Source of the DNA: Vulcanimicrobiota bacterium
GTDB lineage: Bacteria; Vulcanimicrobiota; Xenobia; Xenobiales; JADMJV01
Length of the DNA stretch: 64,000 bases
Direction of reading: 5' to 3'
Assembly: GCA_050250895.1 (NCBI GenBank)
Contig: JBFWNU010000001.1
Span: forward strand, 520,008 to 584,007
The notes beneath the pieces are model-generated. The model was not told the DNA's origin and did no database searches. It worked only from the letters and a program-made list of their open reading frames with translations. Within the stretch, counting starts at the first letter, position 1, and every line of letters begins with the position of its first letter. Below are positions 17,391-53,164 of the stretch, piece by piece. Made by a program: the position numbers and the translations under genes.

Positions 17391-18866
17391 TCAGACGCTG
17401 ACCCTGGCCCGGCCCAGCCCCGCCTCGATCATCTTGATCAACTCGCTGAGATCGAACGGTTTGCGCAGAAACGACAGACAGCCATTCTTGAGCATCTCGG
17501 ACACGCGCACATTGGCCGTATATCCGCTCATCAAGACCACCTTGACCTGGGGATTGATGGCCCGCAGCTTTTCGAAGCAGGCGGCGCCGCCCATCTCGGG
17601 CATCACCAGGTCGAGCACCACCAGATCGATCGATTCTGGCTCATAGAGCTCGAGCGCTTCTATCCCATTGCTAGCCAGCACGACGTTGTAGCCCGACTTG
17701 GTAAGCGCAGCGCGGCCCACGGCCCGGATGGCCTCTTCGTCGTCGACCAGAAGAATGGTTTCGCCCCGACCGGGCCGAGCCAGCCCTTCTCGTCGCGGTG
17801 CCGCAGGCGCAGGCACGCCTTCGCTGCGACGACCCGGCAGGCTGAGGATGCGGGCCCGATCCGAGCCGACCGAACTCAGAGCGACTCTGCCCCCCAATTC
17901 GCGGGCAGCCTTCTGAATAGCCATCAAGCGAGGGCTCTGATCGGCTTCAAATCCAAGACCGGTAAAGGTCTCGCCGTGGGAAACGATCTCTACCAGCAAA
18001 TTATGACCGGTAAGATTCGCCCGAAATGTCAAAACCCCCCGCCCGCTCAGCTCATCGGCGCCATCGAGAGCCATCATCATCAACAGGCGCCGCAATCGCT
18101 CGGCGTCGACCGCAAGGCTGGCTTCTTGAAAGACGATTTCTGAACGAACCTCGAGAGTTCGCGGCAGAGTGTGGCGCAAAAGCGGAATCAGCTCTCGTAG
18201 CAGCTCGAAGGGGTTGACGTCCACCACTTGCGAGGCGGCCTCGCCTTCGAAGCTGGCCAGGCGATTGGTCAGTGACAAACCTCGACTGATGGCCTTTTGG
18301 ATCTGCTCGACCAGCTCGGCCGCCGGTCCCTGGTGGGGGATTTCGCGGACCAGCAACTCGGTCAGGCCTGCCACCGCCGTCAAAAGATTGTTGAAGGTGT
18401 GGGCCGTCCCGGCCGCCAGCAGGGAGTTCGAAGTCACTTCTTCGCCCGTCTCCAAATCCAACTCGGGCAGGGCGCAGATCCTGACCTCCACCAGTGAGCC
18501 ATCGCCAAAGCGAGTGTTTTGGCCACGCACCTCAAGCCCATGTCCCGGCAGACGCCGTTGAAAGACTTCGTTCGCAGTCAGAGCCTCGCGCAGGACCGCT
18601 ACCAGGGCGGCCCATCGGGCATCCCCACTGGGGGGGAGCATTTCCGACAGCTCGCGATGAGTCGAGATGAATCCGACCGAGGGCAGGCCCAGCAACGTCT
18701 TGGCCTGGCGGTTGGCAAATAGAAGTCGCCCGTCCTGCAGCACGAGAACCCCATCAGGAGAGGCCTCGTTGAGGATCTTGAGCTTTTCGAGCGGATCGAC
18801 CAGGGCTCGAATCAAGTCGGTGACGCTGCGGCTGCCGTAGCTCTTGGTTTCATGATTTTCTCTCAC
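17391..18866 (-). CDS. hybrid kinase-like protein: PAS, HisKA, degenerate HATPase, intact REC
   Basis: AHTFNNLL keeps the His; N, G1, F and G2 boxes not recognisable; ILLVDDE..LDLVMP..KPF. Confidence 0.82.
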   Translation of the reverse strand: MRENHETKSYGSRSVTDLIRALVDPLEKLKILNEASPDGVLVLQDGRLLFANRQAKTLLGLPSVGFISTHRELSEMLPPSGDARWAALVAVLREALTANEVFQRRLPGHGLEVRGQNTRFGDGSLVEVRICALPELDLETGEEVTSNSLLAAGTAHTFNNLLTAVAGLTELLVREIPHQGPAAELVEQIQKAISRGLSLTNRLASFEGEAASQVVDVNPFELLRELIPLLRHTLPRTLEVRSEIVFQEASLAVDAERLRRLLMMMALDGADELSGRGVLTFRANLTGHNLLVEIVSHGETFTGLGFEADQSPRLMAIQKAARELGGRVALSSVGSDRARILSLPGRRSEGVPAPAAPRREGLARPGRGETILLVDDEEAIRAVGRAALTKSGYNVVLASNGIEALELYEPESIDLVVLDLVMPEMGGAACFEKLRAINPQVKVVLMSGYTANVRVSEMLKNGCLSFLRKPFDLSELIKMIEAGLGRARVSV

Positions 18867-18873
18867 CTATCGC

Positions 18874-18923
18874 CTATCGGCGGGTCGGGACCCGACTTAA
18901 GTCTTTTCTCAAAATGCCGAAGA
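18874..18923. promoter_or_regulatory. divergent sigma-28 promoters sharing one TTAA -35
   Basis: Minus strand TTAA-N15-GCCGATAG; plus strand TTAA-N15-GCCGAAGA; both use 18897-18900. Confidence 0.6.
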
Positions 18924-18944
18924 AACGGGCAGATGGAGGATCCA

Positions 18945-29483: not shown

Positions 29484-29918
29484 TTACCCTGGTGGGACTT
29501 TCGCACAGGCAGAACACAGCCCGGCCAGGCTCAGGTGTTCGCGATCGATCTGGAATCCGTAGGTAGCCCGGACCTTTTTGGCCAGGCCCAAGATCAAGTC
29601 ATAATCGCACTCTTCGACCTGGCCGCATTGCTTGCAGCAAAGGTGGCCGTGCAGGTGACCGGGGTCGCGAAAAGAGTAATGGATCTGGTCGACCGCGGCG
29701 TCGAGGCGGTCTACTAGACCGGCTTCGTGCAGGCCCTCGAGGGTTCGATAGACGGTGGCCAGGTTGAGACCCGGCATCGTCGGAGAAGCCATCTCATAAA
29801 GTTCTTTGGCGGTCAGGTGCTGGTGCCCCTCGACCTCCCGGAGCAAGCCCAGCAAGGTCGTCCGCTGGGCGGTCACTCGAAGCCCGTGGGAGCGCAGAAG
29901 GTCAGCGTGTTCTTTCAC
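29484..29918 (-). CDS. Fur-family transcriptional regulator
   Basis: GLRVTAQR, HLTAKELY, LATVYRTL, HGHLCCKQCG, GLCSAC; GTG start at 29918. Confidence 0.92.
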   Translation of the reverse strand: MKEHADLLRSHGLRVTAQRTTLLGLLREVEGHQHLTAKELYEMASPTMPGLNLATVYRTLEGLHEAGLVDRLDAAVDQIHYSFRDPGHLHGHLCCKQCGQVEECDYDLILGLAKKVRATYGFQIDREHLSLAGLCSACAKVPPG

Positions 29919-29993
29919 GAGCGCCCCTTCGAGACGGTGGCTGCATCTCCCGCCCTTGAAGGAGCCCAAGGGGAGTGTGCGGTAGACGGCCGG

Positions 29994-31547
29994 GTGAGAC
30001 ACTTGCGGCTTTGGCTCCTCCTCTTCTTCCTGCTCTTGGGCTGGCCGGCCTGGGCCCATGACGAGACGGCCGATTCTCTATTGAAGTTGGTGGTCGAACC
30101 CGGAGTGATCCGATTGGACTACGAGATCCACTTTTCGGGAACCGAGAGCTTCACCCGCATCCGCTCGCTCGACAGCAACGGCGACGAGACATACTCTGAT
30201 TTCGAGAAAGAGGCTTTTCTGGGGGTCCGCGAGTTGGATTTTCTTGAGCAGGCCAGTTTACGCATGGACGGCAAAGGATTAGCCCTGCGACCCATTGCCC
30301 GCAAGGTCGAAGTCGATACTAACTCCGTCACCGGCTTGAGCAAAATCAGTGTCTATCATTCCTTTGAATCCGACCCCTTCGAGTCACCTTCTGCTCACGC
30401 TCGCCTGGAGTTTAGCGATAAAGCTTTCGGATGGACTCGACTCGAACTGGGGGGTGGGCTTGGCCCCGGGCTGGTCGAAGAGGGTCCCAGCCGAGGACGC
30501 AAGCACCAGTTGGTGGTCGACCTGGGCAGCCAGGCGCGAGCGCGAACTGCGACCGAGCAGTCGACCACCGCCTCGGACGACCGGCTACTCGAACTGGTGG
30601 GCGCCAACCTGACCCCCGGAATCATCGCCACCGCCCTCTTGCTGGCCTTTGTCTTCGGAGCCCTGCATGCGCTCACGCCCGGGCACGGAAAGACCATGGT
30701 GGCGGCCTACCTGGTCGGTTCGCGAGGAACGTTCTCACAGGCTGTCTTTCTTGGACTGGTGGTCACTTTCACCCACACCATCAGTGTCTTTCTGTTGGGA
30801 ATCGCCTGCTTCTATTACTTCGACAAGGTGGTACCCGAGCAGACCATTCCCTGGATCGCCTTCGCCTCGGGCGTGTTGGTGGTAGTGGTCGGGGCTGTGC
30901 TGCTGGTTGGGCGCTTGCGCGGGGCAGACTGGGGGCATGGCCACTCCCACTCCCATGGTCACGACCACTCCCACGACCATCATAGTCACGCTCACGACCA
31001 CGACCACCACGGTCACGACCACTCCCACGACCATCACAGTCACGCTCACGACCACGACCACCACGGTCACGACCACTCCCACGACCATCACGGTCACGCC
31101 GCCGACCATCGGGGGAGCTGCCAGGAAACCGACCTGGCGGCTTCCCTCGAGGGGCATCATCACCTGGGGCACCACCACGCCGAGGGCAACCCTCCTTCGC
31201 ATCCCCACCAGCCAGAGGTCGCCAAGAAGGTCTCTGGTTGGGCTTTGCTGAGCCTTGGCATCAGCGGAGGCCTGGTGCCCTGCCCCGACGCGCTGCTGGT
31301 GCTGTTGAGCGCCATCGCTCTCAATCGCCTGGCCTTCGGACTGCTGGTGCTGGTGGCCTTTAGCCTCGGTCTGGCGGCCGTGCTGGTGGCCATCGGAGTG
31401 GCGGTAGTATCGGCCGCCCGGGTGGCCGATCGCTTCATGCCCGGTCGAGAAACGGTGGCCCGCATCTCGGTGGTGGCCTACGGGTTGGTCTGTCTGCTGG
31501 GGCTGGTCATGGCCTGGCGGGCGCTCGTCAGCGCCGGGGTGCTATGA
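29994..31547 (+). CDS. RcnA/NicO-family Ni/Co transporter with N-terminal periplasmic domain and His-rich loop
   Basis: Signal AWAH, GALHALTPGHGKT, THT, GLVPCPDA. Confidence 0.88.
   Translation: MRHLRLWLLLFFLLLGWPAWAHDETADSLLKLVVEPGVIRLDYEIHFSGTESFTRIRSLDSNGDETYSDFEKEAFLGVRELDFLEQASLRMDGKGLALRPIARKVEVDTNSVTGLSKISVYHSFESDPFESPSAHARLEFSDKAFGWTRLELGGGLGPGLVEEGPSRGRKHQLVVDLGSQARARTATEQSTTASDDRLLELVGANLTPGIIATALLLAFVFGALHALTPGHGKTMVAAYLVGSRGTFSQAVFLGLVVTFTHTISVFLLGIACFYYFDKVVPEQTIPWIAFASGVLVVVVGAVLLVGRLRGADWGHGHSHSHGHDHSHDHHSHAHDHDHHGHDHSHDHHSHAHDHDHHGHDHSHDHHGHAADHRGSCQETDLAASLEGHHHLGHHHAEGNPPSHPHQPEVAKKVSGWALLSLGISGGLVPCPDALLVLLSAIALNRLAFGLLVLVAFSLGLAAVLVAIGVAVVSAARVADRFMPGRETVARISVVAYGLVCLLGLVMAWRALVSAGVL
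30957..31099 (+). repeat. 54-bp coding tandem repeat (GHDHSHDHHSHAHDHDHH), about 2.6 copies
   Basis: Units start at 30957, 31011, 31065. Confidence 0.9.
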
Positions 31548-32347
31548 TGCTGGCCCTGCACATACCCGACGGCTTTCTGCCCGGACCCGTCGGGGCAGCC
31601 GGCTGGTTGTTGGCCCTGCCGGCCCTGCTCTGGAGCCTCTATCAAGCCTCACGCCAGGAGGAGGACGAACTACCCCTGGCCGGACTGCTGGCCGCCTTCG
31701 TGTTCGCGGCCCAGAGTTTCCAATTTCCCATCCCCGGAGGCACGACCGGACACCTTATCGGAGCCACCCTGGTAACCATCCTGGCCGGCCCCGGCCTGGC
31801 CTTTCTGGTGCTCACCTGCGTCATCTTGCTGCAGGCTCTGCTGTTCGGCGACGGCGGCCTGGTGGTGATGGGCTGGAACCTCACCAACATGGGGGTCCTC
31901 TCCGGATTTTGCGGCGGCAGCCTCTTCCTGTGGCTGACCCGTGGAGGCGCCCCCCGCCCGGCGGCTGGCCTGGTGGCGGCCTGGATCGCTACGCAGGCGG
32001 CCAGTCTGGCCACCTGCCTGGAGCTGGCCGCTGGCAACGCCTCGCCACTGGTGGTCTCGTTGCCCGCCATGGCAGCCACCCAGAGTCTGGTGGGCGTAGG
32101 CGAAGGACTGGTCACGGCCGGCGCTATCGGTTTTTTGGCCCGCACGCGCCCCGGATTGCTCCGGCGACAAGACTCGGCCTGGCCCGGAGGGGTGGGGTTT
32201 GGCCTTCTTCTGGCCGGTTGCCTGGCTGCAGCTCTCTTACTGCCGAGCCGGCCCCTGGCCCCGCTGTTCTGCTGGCTGGCGCTTTGTGGCTTGAGTCTTA
32301 TTGGCTATGGGGTGACCCGCTTCATCGGCTGGCGAGGCAAGCCATGA
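31544..32347 (+). CDS. cbiM: ECF Co/Ni transporter S component CbiM/NikM
   Basis: LHIPDGFL, FPIPGGTTGHLIG, QALLFGDGG. Confidence 0.9.
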   Translation: MMLALHIPDGFLPGPVGAAGWLLALPALLWSLYQASRQEEDELPLAGLLAAFVFAAQSFQFPIPGGTTGHLIGATLVTILAGPGLAFLVLTCVILLQALLFGDGGLVVMGWNLTNMGVLSGFCGGSLFLWLTRGGAPRPAAGLVAAWIATQAASLATCLELAAGNASPLVVSLPAMAATQSLVGVGEGLVTAGAIGFLARTRPGLLRRQDSAWPGGVGFGLLLAGCLAAALLLPSRPLAPLFCWLALCGLSLIGYGVTRFIGWRGKP

Positions 32348-33093
32348 TCGCGACCTTCAGCCCCAGGGCCAGCCGGCCCTGGCAGTTGGATCCCCGGGCC
32401 CTAATGCTGAGCGCGCTGCTGGCCATCGCGGCTATTACCTGGACCGAAAGCTGGGCAGGCCTGGGCTTGACCGCGCTGGCCCTGACGCTTCTGGCTTTGC
32501 TGTGGGGAGTGCCGTTGCTGGCCTGGTGGCTGCGTTCGGCACTGGTCTTGCCGTTTTGCCTGGCGGCTTTGCCCCTGGTCTTCACCGATCCCGGTCCGGC
32601 CTGGATTCAGGTGATGGGCCTGACCGCCAGCCACACCGGGGTCGAGCACTTTCTCTCCATCGTCGTTCATTGCTGGCTCTGCCTGCAGGCGCTCCTACTA
32701 GCAATGGCGGTCGGCGGCCCCACCCAGCTGGTCGAAGCCCTGGGAGGTCTGGGCATGCCGGCCCGCTTGTTGATGGTGGTGCGCCTCTGCGTGCGCTATC
32801 TCGACCTGCTCAAACAAGAGGCCGCTCGCATGGCCCGGGCCCGCCAGTGCCGCAGCTGTGGTCCGGGGCGCCCTGGCCTGGGCTTTCGTCTGGCGGTGGT
32901 GGGCCAACAGGTGGGCTCTCTCTTTCTGCGAGCGCTCGACCGCGCTCAGCGAGTCCACCTGGCTATGCGCTGCCGAGGCTACAGCTCGGCCGACCCCATG
33001 TTCGCGGTCGAGTTCCGCCCCTGGCGGGGCGCCGACTTCGCCCTGGTCGGCCTGAGCTTGGGCTGGCTAGGGACAGCGGTCTGGCCCGGGTGA
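32344..33093 (+). CDS. cbiQ: ECF T component CbiQ/NikQ
   Basis: LDPR, RYLDLL..E..RM.RAR..R, LFLRALDRA..AM.CRGY. Confidence 0.88.
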   Translation: MIATFSPRASRPWQLDPRALMLSALLAIAAITWTESWAGLGLTALALTLLALLWGVPLLAWWLRSALVLPFCLAALPLVFTDPGPAWIQVMGLTASHTGVEHFLSIVVHCWLCLQALLLAMAVGGPTQLVEALGGLGMPARLLMVVRLCVRYLDLLKQEAARMARARQCRSCGPGRPGLGFRLAVVGQQVGSLFLRALDRAQRVHLAMRCRGYSSADPMFAVEFRPWRGADFALVGLSLGWLGTAVWPG

Positions 33094-33794
33094 GTTGGCT
33101 GCGGGCTACCGACCTGAGCTTTGCCTATCCCGATGGCCAGCGGGCCCTCGACCAGGTCTCGTTCGCACTCGCCAGCGGCGAAAAGGCTGTGCTACTTGGG
33201 CCCAACGGAGCCGGCAAGTCCACTCTCTTACTGCATCTCAACGGCATCCACCACGGCCAGGGACGGCTGGAAATCGGCCAGGTCGAGGTAGCTCGCCACA
33301 ACCTCGACCAGATCCGAGCCCGGGTGGGACTGGTCTTTCAGAACCCCGACGACCAGCTGTTTTGCCCTACCGTGGCGGAAGATGTGGCCTATGGCCCTCG
33401 CTATCAGGGCCTGACCGGAGCCGAACTTGAAGCCCGGGTCAAAGCAGCCCTCGAGCAGGTGGATCTGCTGGAAGCCGCCGACCGGTTTCCCCAGAACCTG
33501 AGCGGCGGAGAGAAAAAGAGAGCGGCCCTGGCCACCGTCCTGTCGATGCGTCCCGATTTGCTGGTGCTAGACGAGCCTACCGCCGGGCTGGATGCGCGCG
33601 CCCGGCGCAGCGTCATCGAGGTGCTCAAGGCTCTGGCTACCACCATGCTGGTGGCGACCCATGACCTGGAGCTAGCCAGGGAAATGTTTGAGCGGGGACT
33701 GATTCTCGACGGGGGAAAGCTGGTTTACGACGGACCCCTCGAGGCCGCCCTGGCCGACCGCGAACTGTTGCTACGCCACGGTCTAGTCGCTTGA
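33090..33794 (+). CDS. cbiO: ECF ATPase CbiO/NikO
   Basis: GPNGAGKST, VFQNPDDQLF, LSGGEKKR; GTG start overlaps the cbiQ stop. Confidence 0.92.
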   Translation: MSWLRATDLSFAYPDGQRALDQVSFALASGEKAVLLGPNGAGKSTLLLHLNGIHHGQGRLEIGQVEVARHNLDQIRARVGLVFQNPDDQLFCPTVAEDVAYGPRYQGLTGAELEARVKAALEQVDLLEAADRFPQNLSGGEKKRAALATVLSMRPDLLVLDEPTAGLDARARRSVIEVLKALATTMLVATHDLELAREMFERGLILDGGKLVYDGPLEAALADRELLLRHGLVA

Positions 33795-34220
33795 GCTGCG
33801 GCGACCGCGCAGCAGACTCAAGCCGCCGAAGATACCGAAGAGAACGCTGATGCCGACCAGCAGGCGGGTGTGAGTGGCCACCAGCGGCTGCGAGAACGAC
33901 TTCACCACCTGGTGCTCGTCCACTTCGACCTCTACCGTGGCGCCATGCAAGCCATGGGTGGAATCGGCCTTGACCTTGACCGTCCATTGGCCGGGCTGGT
34001 CTGGCACGAACACGACCCGGCCATGAAAATCGGTGCGGCCAATGGCAAAGGGGTTGCCCTCGGCACCTCCGGGTGGGAAGACCTCGTATTCAGAATAGCT
34101 GGCTTCTTCATCGCCGAGCTGAACCGTGACCACCACCGCCTCGGCCTGGGTCACCTCGTGGTTCACCGTGTGGGCCAGAGCAAGAGTGGATAGCAGCAAA
34201 CAGATCGCCAGGACTCGCAT
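33783..34220 (-). CDS. CbiL/NikL-like membrane-anchored accessory protein
   Basis: Signal ALAH, GRTD..G.VVF.PD.PG.W.V...HG, C-terminal transmembrane segment. Confidence 0.68.
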   Translation of the reverse strand: MRVLAICLLLSTLALAHTVNHEVTQAEAVVVTVQLGDEEASYSEYEVFPPGGAEGNPFAIGRTDFHGRVVFVPDQPGQWTVKVKADSTHGLHGATVEVEVDEHQVVKSFSQPLVATHTRLLVGISVLFGIFGGLSLLRGRRSSSD

Positions 34221-34275
34221 GGCCCCAGTCTATACCGAAAACGGATGCACTTGCAACCGTTCGCGGGAGGGGCGG

Positions 34276-35463
34276 TTAGCGTCGGAACCTCTGGGGAGTT
34301 GCCAGCGCCCGCCGAATCTGGCGAAGCACCTCGGAGGACAGATCGGGTTCGACCACTTCCAAGCTGAATTCTTCCACCGAGAAACTCGGCTTCTCTTCAA
34401 CCACCAGCACACTGGTGTTGGAATGTCGGGCCAGGGCCATCAGTTGCTCGCGGTTCTCGGCCAGCAACACCCGGTAACCAGCCTCCTCCAGCTGGCGGTG
34501 AAGCACTCCGCCCAGCTGGCCCAGGAGCAAGATACACTCTTTGCCCCCCGGGGCGGCGGCGCTCCCGGCACGGGGCAAAACCAGGGTCAACGTGGTGCCC
34601 TGACCCGGGGCTGATTCGATTTCGATCTTGCCCCCCATACTACGAACCCAGCCATACACCCGGGCCAGGCCCAGACCGGGCTGCCCCAGGCGGGTGGTGT
34701 AGAACGGTTCGAACAGGTGCCGAGCCGTACTTCGATCCATGCCATGACCGCTATCCGAGACCGATAGGCGAAGCCAGCCGTCGGGAGAATCCTCGGCTTC
34801 TATCTGAAGCCAACCGCTCCCTGAGGCCATTGCCTCGAGCGAGTTCTGACAGATCTCTCGCAACATCTCTTCACAAACCGAGGACCGAGCCAACAACGTC
34901 AGGCTGGGCGGACACTTCGTCTCGCAACGGGTGCCGGGGGATCGCTCTTTCACCCAGCGGGCCAGGTTGCCCAGCAAAGGCACGACGGCCGTGCCCTCCA
35001 TCGCTTGATCGATGGCACCATAGAAAACCGAGAAGGCGTTGGCTCGGTCTTCGAGCTTGCGACAAGATTCCAGGATCGACTGCAGACCCTCGGTCACCTC
35101 GGGTTGATTACAATCCAGCAGGGCCAACTCGGCCTCGCCCTTGACCCCCGCCAATACGTTACGAAGGTCGTGAGCCACTCGGTCGGCCATGCGGCGCAGC
35201 GCCGCGAAGGCAGGCGCCTCGCGCCCTTCGGCCATCTGGTCGAGCAACTGCCGGCGAAACGTCTCGAGTTCTTCCGGCAAGGTGTCGCAGGCGGCCTGGT
35301 TCTGACGACGCACCTCTTCCAGCAGTTCGCCCCGCACCACCGACACCTCGCGGGGAGCCTCGATACCCAGCCGAACCTGATCGGCTCGGGACTCGAGCAC
35401 GGTGATGATGACATCGTCCCCCACTTTGAGGGATTGCTTCTTCTTGCGCGAGATTACGAGCAT
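34276..35463 (-). CDS. csrA: CsrA-histidine kinase fusion (CsrA-HisKA-HATPase-pseudo-REC)
   Basis: MLVISRKKKQSLKVGDDVIITVL..DQVRLGIEAPREVSVVRGE then AHDLRN, QNSLEAM, DSGHGM, FEPFYTT, GLGL in one frame; overlaps fliW. Confidence 0.9.
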   Translation of the reverse strand: MLVISRKKKQSLKVGDDVIITVLESRADQVRLGIEAPREVSVVRGELLEEVRRQNQAACDTLPEELETFRRQLLDQMAEGREAPAFAALRRMADRVAHDLRNVLAGVKGEAELALLDCNQPEVTEGLQSILESCRKLEDRANAFSVFYGAIDQAMEGTAVVPLLGNLARWVKERSPGTRCETKCPPSLTLLARSSVCEEMLREICQNSLEAMASGSGWLQIEAEDSPDGWLRLSVSDSGHGMDRSTARHLFEPFYTTRLGQPGLGLARVYGWVRSMGGKIEIESAPGQGTTLTLVLPRAGSAAAPGGKECILLLGQLGGVLHRQLEEAGYRVLLAENREQLMALARHSNTSVLVVEEKPSFSVEEFSLEVVEPDLSSEVLRQIRRALATPQRFRR

Positions 35464-35888
35464 GCTACCGGCCTCCTGGATAAGCTGTGACAGGTTCCGA
35501 ACCGAGTGTCGTCAAGTACGACCTGACCGCCCGTCCGGGTTCGCTGGTGCAATACCACCGGGGCCGCCAGATTCATGGTCCAGCCGTCCTGGTCGCAAGT
35601 CACCACGCAATAGATGGCCAGTTCGTCGCCCCGTTCCACTCGCAAAGCCTGCAGAAAGGCGCTGTCGAGATCGGGTTCATAGTCCGAGAAAAAGGTGAAC
35701 GGGTCGGCCAGAGCCAGGGCCAGGTCGGCCTGGTCCACCGACTGAAGCCAGACGAAGGGGCGATACTTGGGCATTTCCAAGAGCACGAACCGGCGACTTT
35801 CTTCGAGACCCACCAGGGGTCGGGTGAACTCGATCAAGCTGCTCTCTGGAACCTCTAACTGGCCGAATCTCAGGCTATCCAACTGCAT
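35454..35888 (-). CDS. fliW: flagellar assembly factor FliW
   Basis: RFG, F.WLQSVD..LAL...DPF.FF.DY, TMNLAAPVV, GGQVVL. Confidence 0.93.
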   Translation of the reverse strand: MQLDSLRFGQLEVPESSLIEFTRPLVGLEESRRFVLLEMPKYRPFVWLQSVDQADLALALADPFTFFSDYEPDLDSAFLQALRVERGDELAIYCVVTCDQDGWTMNLAAPVVLHQRTRTGGQVVLDDTRFGTCHSLSRRPVACS

Positions 35889-35909
35889 TCTAATCTCCTC
35901 GACTGTTTT

Positions 35910-36809
35910 CTATCTAAGATAATTGACCAGACTCAGCTGAGACACTCGTGAGGCCACCTGCATCGTGGCCTGGACGGTGGTCTCGGCAGAGAGCATCTGG
36001 GTGATGGCGGTGGGCAGGTCGACTCCGCTCAAATCCTGCAGTTCCATGTTCAAGTTGATCAGCTTCTCGCCGGTGTGGGTCGACAGGCTCTCGAGATACT
36101 GACCGGCGCTGGCAGCCTCGGCTCGCCGAGTCAGCAAATTGTTCTCGATTTTCTCGAGCTTGTCGAGAAAGGGAGCGGCGTCGAAGTCTGGCTTTTGCAG
36201 GGCGTCGCGCAGCTCGATCACGGTCTGGAAGAAGTCTTCTCCCGACCCGCCCGAAACCGACTGCCCGTTGAGGCTGATGTTGAGGGTCTTGCCGTCGGGC
36301 AGGTTCAAAGGCGGAGAGCCTAGATCGCCTGCGTAATTCACCGAGGTGATTTTGCCCCCCGATTCGGTAGTCTGGAAAGGGGGAGTGCGGCTCTTGAAGC
36401 CGCTCAACAAGTAGCTGCCGTTGATCTCGCTGTTGCTCAAGTTGAGGGCCGACTGCAGGATGCTGTCGACCTCCTGAGCCAGCGACTCTCCCAACTGAGG
36501 TCCAGTGCTACCGTTGGCGGCTCGCTGGGTGATGGTGCGCAAGCTGCGCACTTTAGAGGTCAGGTCGCCCAGCATCTCGTCGACGTAGCGTAGAGAGCCG
36601 GCGCTTTCTGCGACCATGCCCTGATCGGTCTCTAGCCGCGTGATCGCCGCCTGCACTCGGGTCTTGCGGGCGTAGGCCGAGGGGTCCTCGCTGGGGCGGG
36701 TGAGCTTCTGGCCCGAGGCGATCTGTTCTTGCAGGCCGTTGAGACGGCTACGGGCCGATTCTAGATTGTTGAGGATGGCTCGCTGAAAGCGGGCATCGTT
36801 AGCACGCAT
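35910..36809 (-). CDS. flgL: hook-associated protein FlgL
   Basis: QIASGQKLTRPSEDP, YLLSG, SLVNYLR. Confidence 0.9.
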   Translation of the reverse strand: MRANDARFQRAILNNLESARSRLNGLQEQIASGQKLTRPSEDPSAYARKTRVQAAITRLETDQGMVAESAGSLRYVDEMLGDLTSKVRSLRTITQRAANGSTGPQLGESLAQEVDSILQSALNLSNSEINGSYLLSGFKSRTPPFQTTESGGKITSVNYAGDLGSPPLNLPDGKTLNISLNGQSVSGGSGEDFFQTVIELRDALQKPDFDAAPFLDKLEKIENNLLTRRAEAASAGQYLESLSTHTGEKLINLNMELQDLSGVDLPTAITQMLSAETTVQATMQVASRVSQLSLVNYLR

Positions 36810-36810
36810 A

Positions 36811-38481
36811 CTATCTGGCTCCCATGCTGATCAAAGTCGACATGATTTCGTCGGCCACGGTGGCCACCCGAGCCGCGGCCGCAAACGATTGCTGGTAACG
36901 CTGCAGGTTGAGCAACTCCTCGTCGGAGTTGACTCCCGAGATCTGCTGGCGGCGCTCGTCGGCATCGGTTTCTAGCAGAGTGTTCCGTTGAGCCATCACC
37001 ATCTCGCGACTGCGAGCGGCTCCGGCCGAGGTGGCCAAATCGTCGATGGACTCTTGAAAAGTGCGGTCGCCACCCGAGCCGAAAGCGGCGCTATCGAGCT
37101 TGGAGGCCATCTGACGCAACATCCGACCGTCGCCAGGCACGGCTGGCGCAGACACGGCACCGGTGAGGCCGAGCACCTGCGAAAGGTTGCCGCCGAGATC
37201 GTTGACGGTGATACCAGGCGGACCGGCCATTGAGGGGTCGCGCTCGAGCACCACCCGACCACTGGGTGAGTCGAATCGAGCTTTGACTCCGGCGGCGCTG
37301 AGGTTGCTCAGAATCTGGTCGGTGGATTGGCTATCATCCCAGCTGACGGCGATTCCGTTGATTTCGATGGTGCCAGAGGCGGTGGCCGGGGTATTGAGGT
37401 TGGCCGCCTGGTTGACCAGGCTGTCGCCGGCAGTGAAGCTAGCGTTGCCCACCCCGCTGGTGCCCTCGACTCGGGCCAGGGCTCCGGCGATGGCCCGGGG
37501 ATCGGTGAGGGCCAGGCGGAGGTCGCCAGCCCCGCTGCCCTGCAAGAGGTCACGCCCGGCCACGCCGTCAAGACCGTAGCCGAGTTGGTGAACGCTATTG
37601 AGCTGATCTTTGAAGCTGTTGGCGCTGGCATCGAGGGCGGTGCGAAAGCCGGCCAATTCGGTCTGGGCGAAATTCAGGTTGGCGGCCAGCGAGCCGCCGC
37701 GGGGGCTCAAGCTTTGGCCGGTCTGGGTGCGGAGGCCATTGGTGGCGTCCCACTGCAGCTGGTCGAGCTGGACGCCATAGAGAAGCTGCTTGCCATCGAG
37801 ATAGACCGAGGTGGCCCCGCCGTGAGATTCGCGCACTTGCACGTTGACCAGGCCGCTCAATTCGTCGAGCAGCACGTCGCGCCGGTCGAGCAGCACGTTC
37901 TTGCCGGCGCTGCCGTCGAGAGGCGGCAGTTGCTTATTGATGCCCTGCAGCTCGACCAAAATCTGGTTGGCCCGGTCGGTCAGATCGCCGACGCGAGCGC
38001 GGGCCTCGTCGCCCAGCTGGTCAAGCGAGTTCGAGGTGTCCTGAAAGGTCCGCGTGAATCCGTCGAGCTTGCTCAACAGGTCGCTGCGTAAAGCTATATC
38101 GTCGGGATGGGTGGCCACCTCGAGCAGGGCCGCTCGGACGTCCTGTGCCTGGCTGCTCAGACCCTCGGAATTGTTGAAGATCGACTCCAGGCGACTGGTC
38201 AGGGGGTCAAGACTGCGCGAGGCCTCGGCGTTGCGATGGTGAAGGCGATAGGCAGTATCCAGTAAGCCATCGCGAACTCGCTCGAAGCCCTCGACCTGCA
38301 CGCCCAGCCCGTCGTGGTGCTGTTGGAAGGTCGAAATCGCCGGTCCGACATTGCTGACCACAGCCCTCTGCCGGCTGTAGCCGGGCAGATCGACACCTTC
38401 CAGGTTGCGACCGGTGAGCTCGATCTGGAGCTGACTCGAGCGCAGCAGGCTGGAGGCGATATTTAGTGAGTTGAGAGCCAT
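36811..38481 (-). CDS. flgK: hook-associated protein FlgK
   Basis: PGYSRQR, LLDRRDVLLDELS, ISGVNSDEE; start moved to 38481. Confidence 0.9.
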   Translation of the reverse strand: MALNSLNIASSLLRSSQLQIELTGRNLEGVDLPGYSRQRAVVSNVGPAISTFQQHHDGLGVQVEGFERVRDGLLDTAYRLHHRNAEASRSLDPLTSRLESIFNNSEGLSSQAQDVRAALLEVATHPDDIALRSDLLSKLDGFTRTFQDTSNSLDQLGDEARARVGDLTDRANQILVELQGINKQLPPLDGSAGKNVLLDRRDVLLDELSGLVNVQVRESHGGATSVYLDGKQLLYGVQLDQLQWDATNGLRTQTGQSLSPRGGSLAANLNFAQTELAGFRTALDASANSFKDQLNSVHQLGYGLDGVAGRDLLQGSGAGDLRLALTDPRAIAGALARVEGTSGVGNASFTAGDSLVNQAANLNTPATASGTIEINGIAVSWDDSQSTDQILSNLSAAGVKARFDSPSGRVVLERDPSMAGPPGITVNDLGGNLSQVLGLTGAVSAPAVPGDGRMLRQMASKLDSAAFGSGGDRTFQESIDDLATSAGAARSREMVMAQRNTLLETDADERRQQISGVNSDEELLNLQRYQQSFAAAARVATVADEIMSTLISMGAR

Positions 38482-38735
38482 CTCGAAGAGTGGGCCGCCT
38501 TTTGCGAATAGGTCGTCCTGACGGGTCCACCGAGGGTGTCCAGAAGATCCCGGTTGAGTGCCCACACGTGGCGAAGCTCGTCAGGGTCGAGTTGGTGACG
38601 GGGCAGCTCTTCGAGCAAGGCTTGCTTCTCGAACAGGATCTCCCCCAACACTTCAGGTCGCGGATCGAGCAGGCACTCGATCTCTAGAGTCATCAGCTCG
38701 GCCAGTCGGGCGAGCAAACCAGCTTCAGATGACAT
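38463..38735 (-). CDS. short helical protein, FlgN-like by position
   Basis: Lies between flgM and flgK; EK..LL..L, LN..LL, TYS. Confidence 0.55.
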   Translation of the reverse strand: MSSEAGLLARLAELMTLEIECLLDPRPEVLGEILFEKQALLEELPRHQLDPDELRHVWALNRDLLDTLGGPVRTTYSQKAAHSSRWLSTH

Positions 38736-39009
38736 CGCTGAGCTTGTCGGCCAGCTGGTCGAGGTCGACCTTGTAGTCGCCCGAGGCGATGCGGGACTTG
38801 AAGCTCTCGACCACATCGGTGCGAACGTCGGGCGAGTCCTGGACCAGCTTCGAGAGTTCGCTCATCTCTTTGGCGGAAGTCGACACCTCGACGCTGCTGG
38901 AGCCGCCCTTCGAGCACGAAGAGGCGCAGCTAGTCGAGGCCGGGGTCCGGACCTCGCTGACCCCGTTGATTTTGCTGGGAATGTTGTTTGAACTACCTGA
39001 TACAGTCAT
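38725..39009 (-). CDS. flgM: anti-sigma-28 factor FlgM
   Basis: VEVS, DVRTDVVESFKSRIASGDYKVDLDQLADKL. Confidence 0.9.
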   Translation of the reverse strand: MTVSGSSNNIPSKINGVSEVRTPASTSCASSCSKGGSSSVEVSTSAKEMSELSKLVQDSPDVRTDVVESFKSRIASGDYKVDLDQLADKLSDVI

Positions 39010-39046
39010 TGCCTATTCCTCCTACTAGCACTATTGTCTGCTAGTA

Positions 39047-39073
39047 TTATCGACCGGGTGGGGGTTTCCTTAA
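39047..39073 (-). promoter_or_regulatory. sigma-28 promoter for the flgM operon
   Basis: TTAA-N15-GTCGATAA. Confidence 0.72.
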
Positions 39074-39094
39074 TACCCCGTATGGGGGTTTTCC

Positions 39095-39982
39095 CTATGA
39101 GGCTCGGGAGTTAGCACCCACACCAACGTAGTTGCCGATCTCACAGAACTCGTCCTGAGCGGCCGCAACGGCCCGTTCGACTTCCTCGACGGTCAAGTCG
39201 AGCAACTCGAGATAGAGGGAGTTGACCTCCTGCCCCTCCCAGGCTGAACAGGCCAGGGCGACCAGGGCGGCGGGCTTCTCGTGCTTGCCGGCCTTGTTCG
39301 GGCTATGGTGATAGCGCACGCACTCGATCAGCATTTCGGGAAGCTTCCACGCCTCGCAGGTGGTGGCCCCAATCTCGGCGTGGTCGGTTCCCAGAAACTC
39401 GCGCTCGGCCGCCAGGGGGTCCTCGGCGTCGGCCAGCCTGGCCATCAACATCGTGTGCTCGCGGGGAGCATACTTCCGCAGGACCGAGTAGCCGACATCA
39501 TGCAGCATCCCGGCCACGAAGAGTTCCTCGGGACAGCCCTGGCGGGCGAGTCTGGCCAGGTTCTTGGCTACCAGACCGGTGCCCATGGCTCGCTTCCAAT
39601 GGACGGCCTGGTCGTTGCCGGTACCGGCGAAGAACGAGTCGTACGAGGCCAGACAGAAACACAAGCTGCGGACCACGTTGAGTCCCAGCATGCTGACCGC
39701 CTGGGTCACCGACATCACCCGCTGGGTGACGCCGTAGTAGGCCGAGTTCACCATTCTCAATACCCGAATGGAGAGTGACTGGTCGGTCGAAATGACCTTG
39801 CCCAGGTCGCGGGCCGAGACGAACGGCGAGTTCAACAGGCTCAGCAGTTTGCGATACACAAACGGCATCGTATCCAGATCGCTGAGTCGCGAGTGGATCT
39901 TTTGTTTGAGTGCCTCGGTGTCGAGATTCTCGATTTCCACGGGTTGCTCGGCAGCGGCTCTGCCGTAGGTAATCCTCTTCAC
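39095..39982 (-). CDS. HDOD domain protein
   Basis: DQSLSIRVLRMVNSAYYG, AGMLHDVG, DHAEIG, WKLP, RYHH. Confidence 0.9.
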   Translation of the reverse strand: MKRITYGRAAAEQPVEIENLDTEALKQKIHSRLSDLDTMPFVYRKLLSLLNSPFVSARDLGKVISTDQSLSIRVLRMVNSAYYGVTQRVMSVTQAVSMLGLNVVRSLCFCLASYDSFFAGTGNDQAVHWKRAMGTGLVAKNLARLARQGCPEELFVAGMLHDVGYSVLRKYAPREHTMLMARLADAEDPLAAEREFLGTDHAEIGATTCEAWKLPEMLIECVRYHHSPNKAGKHEKPAALVALACSAWEGQEVNSLYLELLDLTVEEVERAVAAAQDEFCEIGNYVGVGANSRAS

Positions 39983-41109
39983 GCTGGAACCTCCTGGGGT
40001 TTTGAGTCTTGACTGGTTTGATAGCGACCGTTGCCAGAATTAAAGGGCTCGCCCTCACGCGAATATCTCTCCTTGATGTCGAGAATCTCGGGCAAAACCT
40101 GCATAAAGATGTTCACCAGCCTGGGATCGAACTGGGTCCCAGAACAGCGTTGGATCTCGGCGACCGCGTCTTCGACCGTCCAGGCCTGCTTGTAGGGTCG
40201 CTCCGAAGTAAGCGCGTCGAAAACGTCGCACACGGTGGAGATCCTGGCTTCGAGAGGAATCTGCTCGCCCCGTAAGCCGTCAGGATAGCCCTTGCCGTCC
40301 CAACGCTCGTGGTGCCAGCGAGCCACTCGCTCGGCCATCTTCATCAGCTCGGAACTCCCACCCCGCATGAGCTCGGCGCCGATCTTGGCGTGGCTTTTCA
40401 TGATCTCCCACTCCTCGGGGGTGAGCTTGCCCTTCTTGAGCAGCACGTGGTCGGGAATACCGATCTTGCCGACATCGTGCAGGGCGGCCGCGTGCAGCAG
40501 CTGCTCGCGCTGCTCGATGGGCATTCCCATGGCTCGGGCCACGACCACGGCGTAGCGGCTCATCCGGCTGATGTGCAGACCCGTTTCGTCGTCGCGATAC
40601 TCGGCGGCCATGCCCAGGCGCCTTACCATCTCGAAATGAGCCTCTTGGAGAGCCAGAGTGCGCTCGCGCACCCGGTTCTCCAAATCCTTGTTCTGAGCAT
40701 AAAGTTTGCGATGCAGCAAACGAACCTCGAGCAGATTCTCTACTCGGCAAAAGAGTTCGAAGCGGTCAAAAGGCTTGCAGACGAAGTCGCGAGCCCCCAA
40801 ACCCAGGGCGCGACGACGGGTTTCGGGATTGGTGTCCCCGGTCAGCACCAGCACCGGCAAATAGGTGCCGTCGTGAAACTCTTCGGTCTCTAAGATAGTG
40901 AAGCCGTCCAGGACCGGCATGTTGAGGTCCAGTATCACCAGATCGGGCCTGAACTCTCGAAAGGCTTTCTCGAAGTGAAGCGGATTGCTGATCCCTTTGA
41001 GGTCCTGATAACCCGCTTTGCCGAGCAAGCGCTCGACGATCCTGACGTTAATCTCCTCGTCGTCGACGATGAGAATCCGTGCTGTTTTTCGCTCTTGATC
41101 CGTGATCAC
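39979..41109 (-). CDS. REC-HD-GYP c-di-GMP phosphodiesterase (RpfG family)
   Basis: LHDVGKIGIPD, HHERWDGKGYP, DVFDAL..RPYK. Confidence 0.94.
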   Translation of the reverse strand: MITDQERKTARILIVDDEEINVRIVERLLGKAGYQDLKGISNPLHFEKAFREFRPDLVILDLNMPVLDGFTILETEEFHDGTYLPVLVLTGDTNPETRRRALGLGARDFVCKPFDRFELFCRVENLLEVRLLHRKLYAQNKDLENRVRERTLALQEAHFEMVRRLGMAAEYRDDETGLHISRMSRYAVVVARAMGMPIEQREQLLHAAALHDVGKIGIPDHVLLKKGKLTPEEWEIMKSHAKIGAELMRGGSSELMKMAERVARWHHERWDGKGYPDGLRGEQIPLEARISTVCDVFDALTSERPYKQAWTVEDAVAEIQRCSGTQFDPRLVNIFMQVLPEILDIKERYSREGEPFNSGNGRYQTSQDSKPQEVPA

Positions 41110-41144
41110 TGAGCACTCCTTTCGGAACCCGATTTCACCCCTGT

Positions 41145-41202
41145 CTATCGGTGGCTAGCAAAAAAACTTGAGGCCTTTAGCCCAAAAAGTTGCGGCCGAT
41201 AG
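41145..41202. promoter_or_regulatory. back-to-back sigma-28 promoters
   Basis: Minus strand TCAA-N15-ACCGATAG (41145-41171); plus strand TTTA-N15-GCCGATAG (41176-41202). Confidence 0.7.
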
Positions 41203-41221
41203 ATTCAACTGGAGGTGAACT

Positions 41222-41893
41222 ATGCTCGTACCCGGTATTGACAAGGTAACCAGGCGCCTGGGCGAAGAGTTCTGGCGGCTCGACCAGTTGGCCAACAACC
41301 AGGCCAACGCCGACACACCCGGCTTTCAAGCCACGATGAGCGGCCTGCGGGCCGGCAAGCTCGAACAGTGGCGCGACGCTCGGGCGGGCTCGCAGACGGT
41401 CACCGAGCGCCAGCTCGACCTGGGACTGCCCGAGGGTTCTTATCTACAGGTTAAAAGCCAGGGGGTGACCTTCTTCACCCGCCGCGGAGACCTGAAGATG
41501 GACCAGGACGGCTTTCTTACCACCGGCTCCGGCGAACAGGTCCTGGACGCCACCGGCAACCCCATCAAGATAGAGAAGATGGACAGTACCCGCATCGCCG
41601 AAGATGGCAGCGTCAGCGTGGACGGAAAATCGATAGGCCGCATTCCTCGCTACACGGTCAGCGCCGTCAATGAGAAGGGTGGAGTTCTGTTCACGCCGGC
41701 GCCCAACGCCGACATCACCGAGGACATTCGCCCCATCTCCGCTGGCAGCCTCGAGCGCTCCAACGTGGAGGTAGCCGATAGCATGGCGGAACTGGTGGCC
41801 ACCATGAATCGGGCCAGGGTCTTTCAAACCACCGCCAGCTTGCAAGATTCGACCGTGGAACGGGCCTTACGAGAAATGACCGGCGGCCGATAG
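41222..41893 (+). CDS. flgF: flagellar rod protein FlgF-like
   Basis: LANNQANADTPGF, FTRRG, LERSNV. Confidence 0.8.
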   Translation: MLVPGIDKVTRRLGEEFWRLDQLANNQANADTPGFQATMSGLRAGKLEQWRDARAGSQTVTERQLDLGLPEGSYLQVKSQGVTFFTRRGDLKMDQDGFLTTGSGEQVLDATGNPIKIEKMDSTRIAEDGSVSVDGKSIGRIPRYTVSAVNEKGGVLFTPAPNADITEDIRPISAGSLERSNVEVADSMAELVATMNRARVFQTTASLQDSTVERALREMTGGR

Positions 41894-51141: not shown

Positions 51142-51168
51142 TTACGAAGCTCAGGCCGGTGCCGATAA
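51142..51168 (+). promoter_or_regulatory. sigma-28 promoter of flagellin
   Basis: TTAC-N15-GCCGATAA with a perfect -10. Confidence 0.75.
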
Positions 51169-51246: not shown

Positions 51247-51303
51247 GGGCGACAAGGATGTCGCTCGCTCACAGAGAGCGTGAGGAAGCACTCAAGGAGG
51301 AGT
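51247..51303 (+). promoter_or_regulatory. CsrA-binding sites in the flagellin leader
   Basis: Hairpin GCGACA-AGGA-TGTCGC (ACAAGGATGT consensus), a second GTG-AGGAAG-CAC loop, and CAAGGAGG over the SD. Confidence 0.8.
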
Positions 51304-51310
51304 AACAAAC

Positions 51311-53164
51311 ATGGGTTTCAGAATCAACCAGAACATCGGCGCGATGGTCGCGCTGAACAACTTGCAGCAGAACGACATGTCGATCAGTAAATCGATCGAA
51401 CGTCTCTCGACCGGCTTGCGCATCGTTCGCGGCGCCGACGACCCGTCTGGACTGGTCATCTCGGAGCGCTTTCGCGCCCAGGTGGAAGGTCTCGGACAGG
51501 CGGTCAGCAACGCCAAAGACGGTATCAACATGGTTCAGACTGCGGAAGGTGCGCTCGACGAGGTCAGCCAGGTGCTGCGCAATATGCGCAACGTGGCGGT
51601 TCACGCGGCCAACACCGGCCCCAACGACGCAGCCACCCTCGAAGCTGACCAGAACCAGATGCGTGAAGCCATCAAGACCCTGGACCGCATCGCCAGCCAG
51701 ACCCAATTCGGTGCCAAGAAGGTGCTCGATGGTTCGGCCGGCGTAACGGGCACGGTCACCAACGCCAACGTCAGGTTCGTATCGGGAACCACCAAGACTG
51801 CCGATGGCACCTACGCGGTGAATATCACCACCGCCGCCGCCAAGGGCAAGGTGACCTCGAACGCCAACGGTGGCGCGGCCGTGGCTCGCGGCACTCAGAA
51901 CACCACCGGGGCTAACGCCACCGACGGCAACGCTCTGACCGGTGCCGAGACCCTCACCATCACGGGAGCCATGTCCGGTGGCGCTAACATCGCCATCGCT
52001 CTGACCACCGGCGACGACGTCGACGACATGATCGACAAGATCAACCAGAACGCCGATGTCAAGTCGGCTGGTCTGACCGCCTCCAACGTGGGTGGCAAGA
52101 TCCAGCTGGCCTCTGATCGACTCGGAGCGGGAACCGCCGCCGAGCTCGACATGACCATCACCAACGCCAACGGCGGGACGGCCGTGAGTGGCCTGGCCGC
52201 TGCTGGCGCCAACACCTACTCCCAAGACGATGCCACCGGCGCGACCAAGCTGCGCAATGACGAGTTGCTGACCTTCTCGAACGGCACCAACACCGTCAAC
52301 GTCTCTTTGACCGCCGGTATGACCACTGCAGCCGCGGTGAGCGCCATCAATACCGCCCTCGACAACGCGGGCATCGGCGTCACGGCCGGCTTCGACAGCA
52401 CCGACGCGGTGTTTACCCTCGAGAACGATGCTTACGGCTCGAGCAGCACCGTGTCCAACACCTTCTCGTCGAACTTGTCGGGCGCTAACAGCACCGGACT
52501 AGCCGGCGCAGCGGGCACCAGCTACAACATCGCTGGCTCCGGCGCGGCCCTTTCGGGCGCGGACGGTTCTGACGGTGCCGACGTAGCCGGGACCATCGGC
52601 GGCTTTGCGGCTACCGGTTCGGGCCAGTTCCTGACCGGCAACGCAGGCACCGACGTAGAAGGACTCGAGATCAAAGTCAGCGGTGGTGGCACCGGCGCTC
52701 ACGGAACGGTGACCGCCGCCAACAACTCGCTGACCTTCCAAATCGGCGCCTTCGCCGACCAGACCGCCACCCTCGCCATCGGAGCGATGACCTCCACCAG
52801 TCTCGGAACCGACGCCGCTGGCGTCAGCATCATGAGTTCGGTGAGCGTGTCTAACATCGATGTCTCGTCGGGTGACGGCCAGGGCGCGCAGGATGCCATC
52901 AAGGTCCTCGACGCCGCCATCTCCCAGGTCTCCAAGCTCCGCTCTCAGATCGGTTCGTTCCAAAAGGACATCCTCGAGAGCACCGTGCGGACCCTGGGCG
53001 TGGCCAAGCAGAACCTGGCTTCCAGCGAATCGAACATCCGCGACGCTGACTTTGCGGCCGAGATGATGACCTTCTCTCGCTCGCAGATCCTCAGCCAGAC
53101 CGGTATGTCGATGTTGACCCAGGCCAACCAGGCCGGCCAGTCCGTCCTGAGTCTGTTCCGATAA
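51311..53164 (+). CDS. fliC: flagellin
   Basis: FRINQNI, ERLSTGLRI...DDPSGL, QTAEGALDE, ESNIRDADFAAE. Confidence 0.96.
   Translation: MGFRINQNIGAMVALNNLQQNDMSISKSIERLSTGLRIVRGADDPSGLVISERFRAQVEGLGQAVSNAKDGINMVQTAEGALDEVSQVLRNMRNVAVHAANTGPNDAATLEADQNQMREAIKTLDRIASQTQFGAKKVLDGSAGVTGTVTNANVRFVSGTTKTADGTYAVNITTAAAKGKVTSNANGGAAVARGTQNTTGANATDGNALTGAETLTITGAMSGGANIAIALTTGDDVDDMIDKINQNADVKSAGLTASNVGGKIQLASDRLGAGTAAELDMTITNANGGTAVSGLAAAGANTYSQDDATGATKLRNDELLTFSNGTNTVNVSLTAGMTTAAAVSAINTALDNAGIGVTAGFDSTDAVFTLENDAYGSSSTVSNTFSSNLSGANSTGLAGAAGTSYNIAGSGAALSGADGSDGADVAGTIGGFAATGSGQFLTGNAGTDVEGLEIKVSGGGTGAHGTVTAANNSLTFQIGAFADQTATLAIGAMTSTSLGTDAAGVSIMSSVSVSNIDVSSGDGQGAQDAIKVLDAAISQVSKLRSQIGSFQKDILESTVRTLGVAKQNLASSESNIRDADFAAEMMTFSRSQILSQTGMSMLTQANQAGQSVLSLFR

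Follow-up and report, generated by a model that had tools for sequence, protein, structure and literature searches.

CsrA is among the best-studied bacterial translational regulators and has been treated as a free-standing dimer that is controlled by decoy RNAs or by FliW. Here, we describe a protein of 395 amino acids (P0001) in which a CsrA domain is joined in frame to the core of a histidine kinase. The gene lies at 34276..35463 on the minus strand of a 64,000-nucleotide stretch of DNA (the window, whose coordinates are used throughout) from a Vulcanimicrobiota bacterium (GCA_050250895.1, contig JBFWNU010000001.1, positions 520,008-584,007 of the forward strand). Comparison with related sequences indicates that the fusion is genuine, has been conserved and is subject to selection, and both of its halves look functional. 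It occupies the csrA slot of a flgM...fliW-csrA operon. The fusion is rare. Its regulator and its kinase core are each of a known kind, and we did not find them so arranged in the literature searched. We suggest that the N-terminal domain is a working CsrA and that its occupancy by FliW or RNA sets the output of the kinase to an unlinked receiver, a reading that we regard as evenly poised between right and wrong.

Domain organization of the CsrA-kinase

The reading frame of P0001 comprises 395 codons and a stop, with no internal stop. An earlier note on this DNA had proposed that CsrA runs in frame into a kinase, and the single frame agrees with this. In Pfam searches, CsrA (PF02599) was matched at residues 1-52 with 71.7 bits (cut-off 27) and HATPase_c at residues 198-298 with 75.9 bits (cut-off 26.4), and a HisKA match between them falls just under its cut-off. 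No further domain, and no Response_reg (PF00072), was found in P0001 at E ≤ 1, as the earlier note's remark on the absence of any other sensor domain had led one to expect. The note had also named a stop codon near 35235 as the observation that would split the frame into two genes. The ATG at that place encodes Met77 inside the linker, and a stop is found there in none of the relatives.

Along the minus strand, the CsrA domain (residues 1-58; 35290..35463) is followed by a linker (residues 59-84; 35212..35289), whose length varies among relatives, and by the helical hairpin of a probable DHp (HisKA) domain (residues 85-153; 35005..35211), which carries the predicted phospho-acceptor His98 in an HDLRN sequence. 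The catalytic ATP-binding (CA) domain (residues 154-300; 34564..35004) comes next, with N207, D237-G239-G241, G263-G265 and G287-G289 in its boxes, and the protein ends in a vestigial receiver-like tail (residues 301-395; 34279..34563). At 395 residues (310-395 among the fusion relatives), the protein departs from stand-alone CsrA, which measures about 55-80. Since CsrA stands directly N-terminal to the DHp domain and no other input domain was detected by Pfam or in the structural model, it takes the position that a sensor usually holds.

The AlphaFold model of P0001, built on an alignment of 11 rows, has a predicted local distance difference test (pLDDT) score of 71. It places in order the CsrA strands, a helix at residues 45-58, a break of low confidence, a helix at 63-78 that is itself modelled with low confidence, and the DHp hairpin at 85-117 and 121-153. 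The CA domain is modelled with a pLDDT of 80-92, and the tail forms a beta-alpha-beta-alpha-beta unit at residues 308-355.

Conservation, origin and rarity of the fusion

The genome that holds the window (9,497,728 bases in 17 contigs, 99.64 % complete) has one CsrA match, and this is the CsrA-kinase gene. The exact sequence of P0001 is on record from two sources. Two close relatives, P0002 (88 % identity; named 'carbon storage regulator' at NCBI) and P0287, are likewise 395 residues long; counted against P0001, they have 48 and 28 substitutions, respectively, and no change in length. The 48 substitutions of P0002 are distributed over the CsrA domain (2), the linker (5), the DHp domain (1), the CA domain (21) and the tail (19).

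The family comparison covered 16 genomes of the GTDB family, of which five have CsrA. One of them (G009), which belongs to another genus, encodes a CsrA-kinase of 350 residues that is 34 % identical to P0001 over its full length and whose start overlaps fliW after flgL. A fusion of the same type is found after flgL-fliW on a separate, independent metagenome contig (L124), and seven of the nine codons that differ between L124 and the G009 locus (L009) are synonymous. The 90 % cluster of this orthologue comprises 14 sequences (11 at full length), for which 75 contig sightings are recorded. An exhaustive phmmer search over 1.84 billion cluster representatives (clusters at 50 % identity) gave, among the best 150 listed, nine representatives, P0001 included, that align from residue 1. 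A search for the architecture in related genomes, which the earlier note had proposed as a check, has thus returned a relative at 88 %, a second genus at 34 % and nine clusters at 50 % identity. The protein alignment used below holds 11 fusion members that are 28-88 % identical; CsrA was confirmed by Pfam in P0001, P0002, P0121, P0125, P0130 and P0133, and by alignment only in the other five.

In principle, csrA could have been joined to a neighbouring kinase gene by faulty assembly, by a frameshift or by the merging of two gene calls. We find this hardly credible, and dismiss assembly error, because independent assemblies and lineages keep one stop-free frame and because the genome of the window has no second csrA.

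That the fusion is rare is seen in the locus scans. Full length, it was found at one of the 80 loci kept from 185,579 species genomes (L044, which is again the csrA locus of G009) and at one of the 80 kept loci of the Joint Genome Institute (JGI) metagenome matches listed (L124). In the same scans, L047 and L131 match the kinase part only, and L064 and L149 match over residues 1-132; at the L064 match, no kinase fusion was found among open reading frames of at least 100 residues. A word-index search with residues 1-62 left only P0001 and P0002 out of 36 candidates. The same kind of search with the family alignment gave mostly ordinary kinases, with three fusions among five matches, and provides no census. 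An Atlas look-up with residues 1-160 returned generic HisKA or CsrA clusters only. Long open frames around CsrA elsewhere in the phylum were considered as further fusions, and frame length was then rejected as a measure: the one inspected, of 612 residues at L041, is an upstream read-through in GC-rich DNA around a normal CsrA of about 78 residues.

To the kinase-core tree, 107 sequences were entered (11 fusions and 96 others), of which two short matches were dropped, leaving 105 rows. All 11 fusion cores are contained in a single starred set of 13 rows with a Shimodaira-Hasegawa approximate likelihood-ratio (SH-aLRT) support of 96, and the smallest clade that contains all fusions adds only P0187, a kinase of 339 residues with no CsrA. 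The tree fits a single origin of the fusion and one subsequent split or loss. Also without CsrA is P0154, a metagenomic kinase of 355 residues that is one of the rows closest to P0001; it and P0187, likewise a metagenome protein, may be split or secondarily separated forms. The core has no close paralogue in the genome of the window, where the best match is 38 % identical.

The CsrA proteins of other members of the family were also inspected. In two genomes of a sister genus (G006 and G008; L011 1501-1953 on the plus strand and L012 1153-1653 on the minus strand), the csrA gene after fliW encodes 151-166 residues and is followed by a PilZ gene and a receiver gene. The C-terminal part of these proteins has weak matches to glyoxalase/bleomycin-resistance-like families (E 0.0058 and 0.00078), which are below the cut-offs, and a structural model of the CsrA-glyoxalase-like protein is poor (pLDDT 48) and does not confirm the fold. 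In G007, from the same genus as G009 (L013 1501-1875, plus strand), CsrA has 124 residues with a proline-rich tail and no kinase, and a FliN-type gene comes after it. As the G007 protein carries a tail without a kinase, the C-terminus of CsrA appears to be a variable attachment point in this family.

The csrA slot, FliW and the flagellin leader

On the minus strand, the fusion gene is preceded by genes for a REC-HD-GYP protein and an HDOD protein, and then by flgM, flgN, flgK, flgL and fliW. The order from flgM to csrA is that of Bacillus subtilis. The anti-sigma-28 gene flgM lies at 38725..39009, the flgN-like gene (38463..38816) has a weak Pfam match, and flgK (36811..38565) and flgL (35910..36809) score above their NCBIfam cut-offs. 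The fliW gene (35454..35888) encodes 144 residues with a FliW match of 114.1 bits, and its TAA stop overlaps the start of the fusion by 10 nucleotides. The Shine-Dalgarno sequence of the fusion, AGGAGG (35472..35477, minus strand), is situated within the end of fliW, 8 nucleotides before the ATG. With the G009 fusion also beginning inside fliW, the comparison indicates that translational coupling of the fusion to fliW is conserved, and the usual csrA position after flgKL-fliW, pointed out in the earlier note, is found in two genera.

The CsrA domain has kept residues expected for contact with RNA and with FliW. R6, L32-G33-I34, A36-P37, R44, E46 and N55 are invariant in all 11 fusions, which includes the R6, R44 and N55 singled out earlier. 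The R6 region, the GxxAP strand and R44 are RNA-binding residues according to mutagenesis in Escherichia coli. Among solved structures, residues 1-85 are closest to the FliW-bound CsrA 5dmb_D (aligned over residues 2-74), and the FliW encoded here is closest to 5dmb_A from the same entry. A study in B. subtilis (bioRxiv 10.1101/2020.07.02.184341) states that N55 of CsrA is needed for FliW binding and is contacted by Q124 of FliW. N106, A109 and Q122 do not vary among the family's five FliW proteins. The adjacent fliW, the invariant N55 and the alignment to 5dmb_D through residue 74 agree in pointing to a CsrA of the FliW-regulated type.

For the complex model, FliW was combined with residues 1-84 in two copies, and three controls were run alongside. 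The best control scored 0.00 and the complex 0.87, a mark that 58 of 80 solved complexes and 2 of 110 mismatched pairs attain. The runs share at least 95 % of contacts, and the pLDDT of the partner is at least 87. The modelled footprint of FliW covers residues 38-76, with N55 facing Q122 of FliW, as well as residues 15-16 of the second copy, so that residues of the linker up to 76 are touched and FliW reaches within nine residues of the DHp helix. Because a complex of this kind (5DMB) has already been solved, the score is to be read as an interface that has been kept and not as binding by this particular copy.

The likely mRNA target is the flagellin gene at 51311..53164 (plus strand), the sole flagellin gene of the genome. 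Its leader contains two hairpins, one at 51249..51264 with a GGA (51256-51258) in the loop and one at 51290..51303 whose loop GGA (51296-51298) overlaps the Shine-Dalgarno sequence. Both the first GGA and the one at the Shine-Dalgarno sequence are kept without exception in the flagellin leaders of the family's five flagellated genomes. As a whole, the leader does not fold with unusual energy (z = -1.05). In a genome of the same genus that is 98 % complete (G001), neither CsrA nor flagellin is present. Taken from these sequence features, the CsrA domain looks like a flagellin regulator still.

Upstream of the flagellin leader stands GCCGATA (51161..51167, plus strand), presumably a sigma-28-type -10 motif. 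The window holds 14 copies of it (e.g. 18875-18881, 41195-41201 and 51161-51167) against 4.91 expected, and none of 100 shuffles reached 14 or more. This enrichment fits with a large late-flagellar regulon in the region.

The kinase core and its receiver-like tail

In the kinase, H98, N102, N207, D237, G239, G241, G263, G265, G287 and G289 are invariant in all 11 members. The H-box, AHDLRN with H98, and the N, G1, F and G2 boxes recognized in the earlier note are intact, and they align with the corresponding boxes of ZraS and KinB. The best solved matches in Foldseek were ZraS, DivL, CckA and HK853, with E-values down to 8e-17, and in sequence the nearest relatives are receiver-bearing hybrid kinases.

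In an alignment with the hybrid kinase P0142, the tail corresponds to the first half of the receiver. Gly-Gln stands in place of the acidic pair, Glu in place of the phospho-Asp, and the second half is absent, in line with the degenerate receiver that the earlier note had described. The tail of P0001 therefore falls outside the functional hybrid-kinase receivers, and the whole protein, with a dead receiver and a full HATPase_c, falls also outside the class of response regulators that have CsrA as output. The chain of the orthologue P0121 does not continue beyond the third strand, and in P0133 the tail is missing altogether. Since the tail is a degenerate half-receiver that has been shortened or lost in these two members, the kinase appears to descend from a hybrid kinase with a decayed receiver.

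The presence of the tail raises the alternative that the wiring is reversed, with the kinase core and the pseudo-receiver tail as input and CsrA as output. ATP binding, phosphorylation of His98 or docking to the tail would then alter the binding of CsrA to RNA or FliW and thereby tune flagellin translation. A module that cannot be phosphorylated and yet keeps its beta-alpha-beta-alpha-beta fold in 10 of the 11 members could be a docking site, and a dead kinase that bears a PAS domain and a live receiver, which co-occurs with the fusion and is described below, could feed in a signal. Nonetheless, CsrA precedes the DHp domain, which is the order of an input domain, P0133 does without any tail, and the tail is the least conserved part of the protein, where 19 of the 48 substitutions that separate P0001 from P0002 are located. 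We regard the reversed wiring as unlikely.

A proposed route from FliW to the kinase

We return to the reading in which CsrA is the input. The CsrA domain would repress flagellin translation by binding the two GGA hairpins of the leader, and FliW would antagonize it as in the Hag-FliW-CsrA partner switch of B. subtilis. At the same time, CsrA would fill the sensor position of a soluble class-I histidine kinase. As modules, CsrA and the kinase are each obligate homodimers. Whether the CsrA dimer is free or holds FliW or RNA would track cytoplasmic flagellin and hence filament export, and could shift the balance of kinase and phosphatase activity in the DHp-CA core, from which a signal would then pass to a receiver encoded elsewhere. 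The parts of this scheme that we infer are RNA binding, catalysis, the coupling of the halves and the identity of the receiver.

A number of observations weigh against it, and the first of them concern catalysis. HisKA at residues 89-138 scores 26.2 bits where the cut-off is 26.9, i.e. 0.7 under. The residue after the phospho-acceptor histidine is Asp or Glu in 10 of the 11 members and Gln in the G009 type, and this Gln may weaken autophosphorylation in the G009 lineage. The same two points favour a pseudokinase or phosphatase-only scaffold, in which the core would not autophosphorylate and would serve as a phosphatase or a binding platform like DivL, and DivL is indeed among the best matches by both structure and sequence. 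DivL, however, has Tyr in place of the His, whereas His98, N102, the N box and the glycines of G1 and G2 are invariant in all 11 fusions and an acidic residue follows the histidine in all but one. Such a scaffold seems to us improbable.

The second group of observations concerns the coupling of CsrA to the kinase in the reading that we favour. The pLDDT of the linker is below 50 at residues 58-60 and its conservation is poor. The spacing from N55 to the histidine is 39, 39, 41, 41, 42, 43, 43, 43, 43, 45 and 48 in the 11 members, in steps that are not heptads. A linker that is variable, poorly conserved and poorly modelled argues against a rigid signalling helix that preserves phase. It is also in keeping with a mere tether, by which the fusion would fix only the stoichiometry and location of a kinase that is constitutive or regulated by other means; the CsrA dimer may here just stand in for a lost dimerizing or sensor region and hold the kinase one-to-one with FliW. 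The conserved translational coupling to fliW and the attachment of unrelated C-terminal parts to CsrA in other lineages of the family speak for a tether as well. Against it, the fusion persists in no fewer than nine 50 %-identity clusters in which neither active site varies, and a FliW footprint that extends to residue 76, nine residues from the DHp helix in the model, makes steric effects hard to avoid. We think it quite unlikely that the fusion acts without any allostery.

The remaining points on this side concern how closely the two halves, and their surroundings, belong together. The kinase can exist without CsrA, as two kinase-only proteins, P0187 and probably also P0154, group within the fusion clade or beside it, and CsrA does not need the kinase, as members of the family carry another C-terminal domain or a mere tail. 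P0001 scores under the whole-protein cut-offs of the NCBIfam CsrA equivalogs (PRK01712, 65.9 vs 73; TIGR00202, 59.8 vs 70.1). No response regulator gene adjoins the fusion in either genus, and the best match in G009 of the REC-HD-GYP protein encoded upstream of flgM is on a contig other than that of the csrA locus.

A candidate partner for the kinase

A lead to the receiver, and no more than a lead, is a protein of 491 residues encoded at 17391..18866 (minus strand). It has PAS, HisKA (27.2 bits) and an intact receiver (91.5 bits), and no HATPase_c was found in it at E ≤ 0.1. Its defects complement those of the fusion: it pairs a missing ATPase domain with an intact receiver, and the fusion a kinase core with intact boxes with a dead receiver. 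Among the 15 other genomes of the family, a full-length orthologue (34 % identical over residues 13-482) is found in G009 only; a partial match in G004 is inside a larger kinase. In both genomes the gene is on the contig of the CsrA-kinase, about 14-15 kb away and beside a divergent receiver gene, which in the window (17391-20006) encodes 384 residues with a receiver match only.

The motif GCCGATA occurs just upstream of the 491-residue gene in the window; at the G009 locus (L220), the sole copy is not upstream of the orthologue. By eye, the histidine is not kept in the G009 copy of the protein. That the protein might be a paralogue of the fusion was considered and rejected (BLASTP E = 0.051).

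These features would fit a flagellum-assembly phosphorelay, in which occupancy by FliW and flagellin mRNA gates the kinase and phosphate passes in trans to the 491-residue protein. Because the co-occurrence is drawn from two genomes of one family, we offer this partner as a hypothesis and not as a result, and consider the specific relay possible but doubtful.

The REC-HD-GYP and HDOD proteins were also considered as the output. Their domains were confirmed; matches to the REC-HD-GYP protein (39979..41109) number 18 in the genome of the window and are present in all 16 genomes of the family, its synteny is not conserved, and REC-HD-GYP is one candidate only. It is HDOD, not REC-HD-GYP, that is syntenic in L044.

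Neighbouring genes

The REC-HD-GYP gene overlaps the HDOD gene by 4 nucleotides (39095-41109, minus strand), directly upstream of flgM. In G009, HDOD is again found upstream of flgK (L044 1524-2423) and REC-HD-GYP is not. Downstream of the CsrA-kinase by 55 nucleotides and on the same strand, a gene at 33783-34220 encodes 145 residues with a start that resembles a signal peptide. The protein has no significant family match, and as no terminator was found before the gene, it may be co-transcribed with the CsrA-kinase. A scan of 33600..41400 for terminators and promoters gave nothing decisive.

Further along, at 29484-33794, the translations include a Fur-family-like regulator opposite a frame of 606 residues, in which a membrane part is combined with a long run of His-Asp/His-Ser repeats, followed by open reading frames like transporters of the cobalt/nickel type and an ABC ATPase. 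Judged by these translations, the segment looks like a metal-uptake cluster.

Relation to known systems and implications

The closest parallel to the arrangement is the Hag-FliW-CsrA system of B. subtilis and Geobacillus (5DMB), a type of switch that has been studied in Campylobacter and Clostridioides as well. The translational coupling of fliW and csrA, N55 of CsrA and the Gln of FliW are alike, and so is a flagellin leader with two GGA hairpins, one of them over the Shine-Dalgarno sequence. In contrast to that system, in which CsrA stands alone with about 60-80 residues, CsrA here is the first 58 residues of a 395-residue kinase, and the C-terminal helix that FliW grips continues into the DHp domain.

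On the kinase side, ZraS, CckA, DivL, KinB and HK853 share the boxes of the CA domain, and the H-D-x-R-N box and modelled hairpin of the fusion resemble their DHp domain. Dozens of input domains have been found on histidine kinases. The fusion differs from these kinases in that its input is an RNA-binding protein and not a PAS, GAF, HAMP or membrane sensor, that its receiver is truncated and cannot be phosphorylated, and that a cognate regulator gene is not adjacent.

The earlier note knew of no description of the architecture. As to CsrA-kinases this agrees with what we found: full-text searches of the literature gave no natural CsrA-kinase fusion, the matches to 'CsrA fusion' being reporter or tag constructs. 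The wider idea of joining CsrA to two-component signalling is not new; Galperin, in 2006, reportedly catalogued CsrA joined to receiver domains. A literature search for CsrA as the output of a response regulator returned nothing relevant, and no histidine kinase with an RNA-binding repressor or a partner-switch module as its input was found in the literature searched. In a 2026 survey of CsrA diversity in Nucleic Acids Research (PMC13443453), sequences were trimmed to the Pfam region.

A conserved CsrA-kinase at the fliW locus means that the occupancy of a regulator by RNA and protein could be read out as phosphorylation, or that phosphorylation could set translation. If the reading that we favour is true, a translational repressor would double as the input of a two-component system and turn the export status of flagellin into a phosphorylation signal. 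The question is tractable even though these soil-type organisms are uncultured, because every component is a small soluble protein open to production and assay in vitro. Through the fusion, other pathways in the cell might be informed of the state of flagellum assembly, and the homeostasis of flagellin would be tied to signalling more broadly in a phylum of which little is known.

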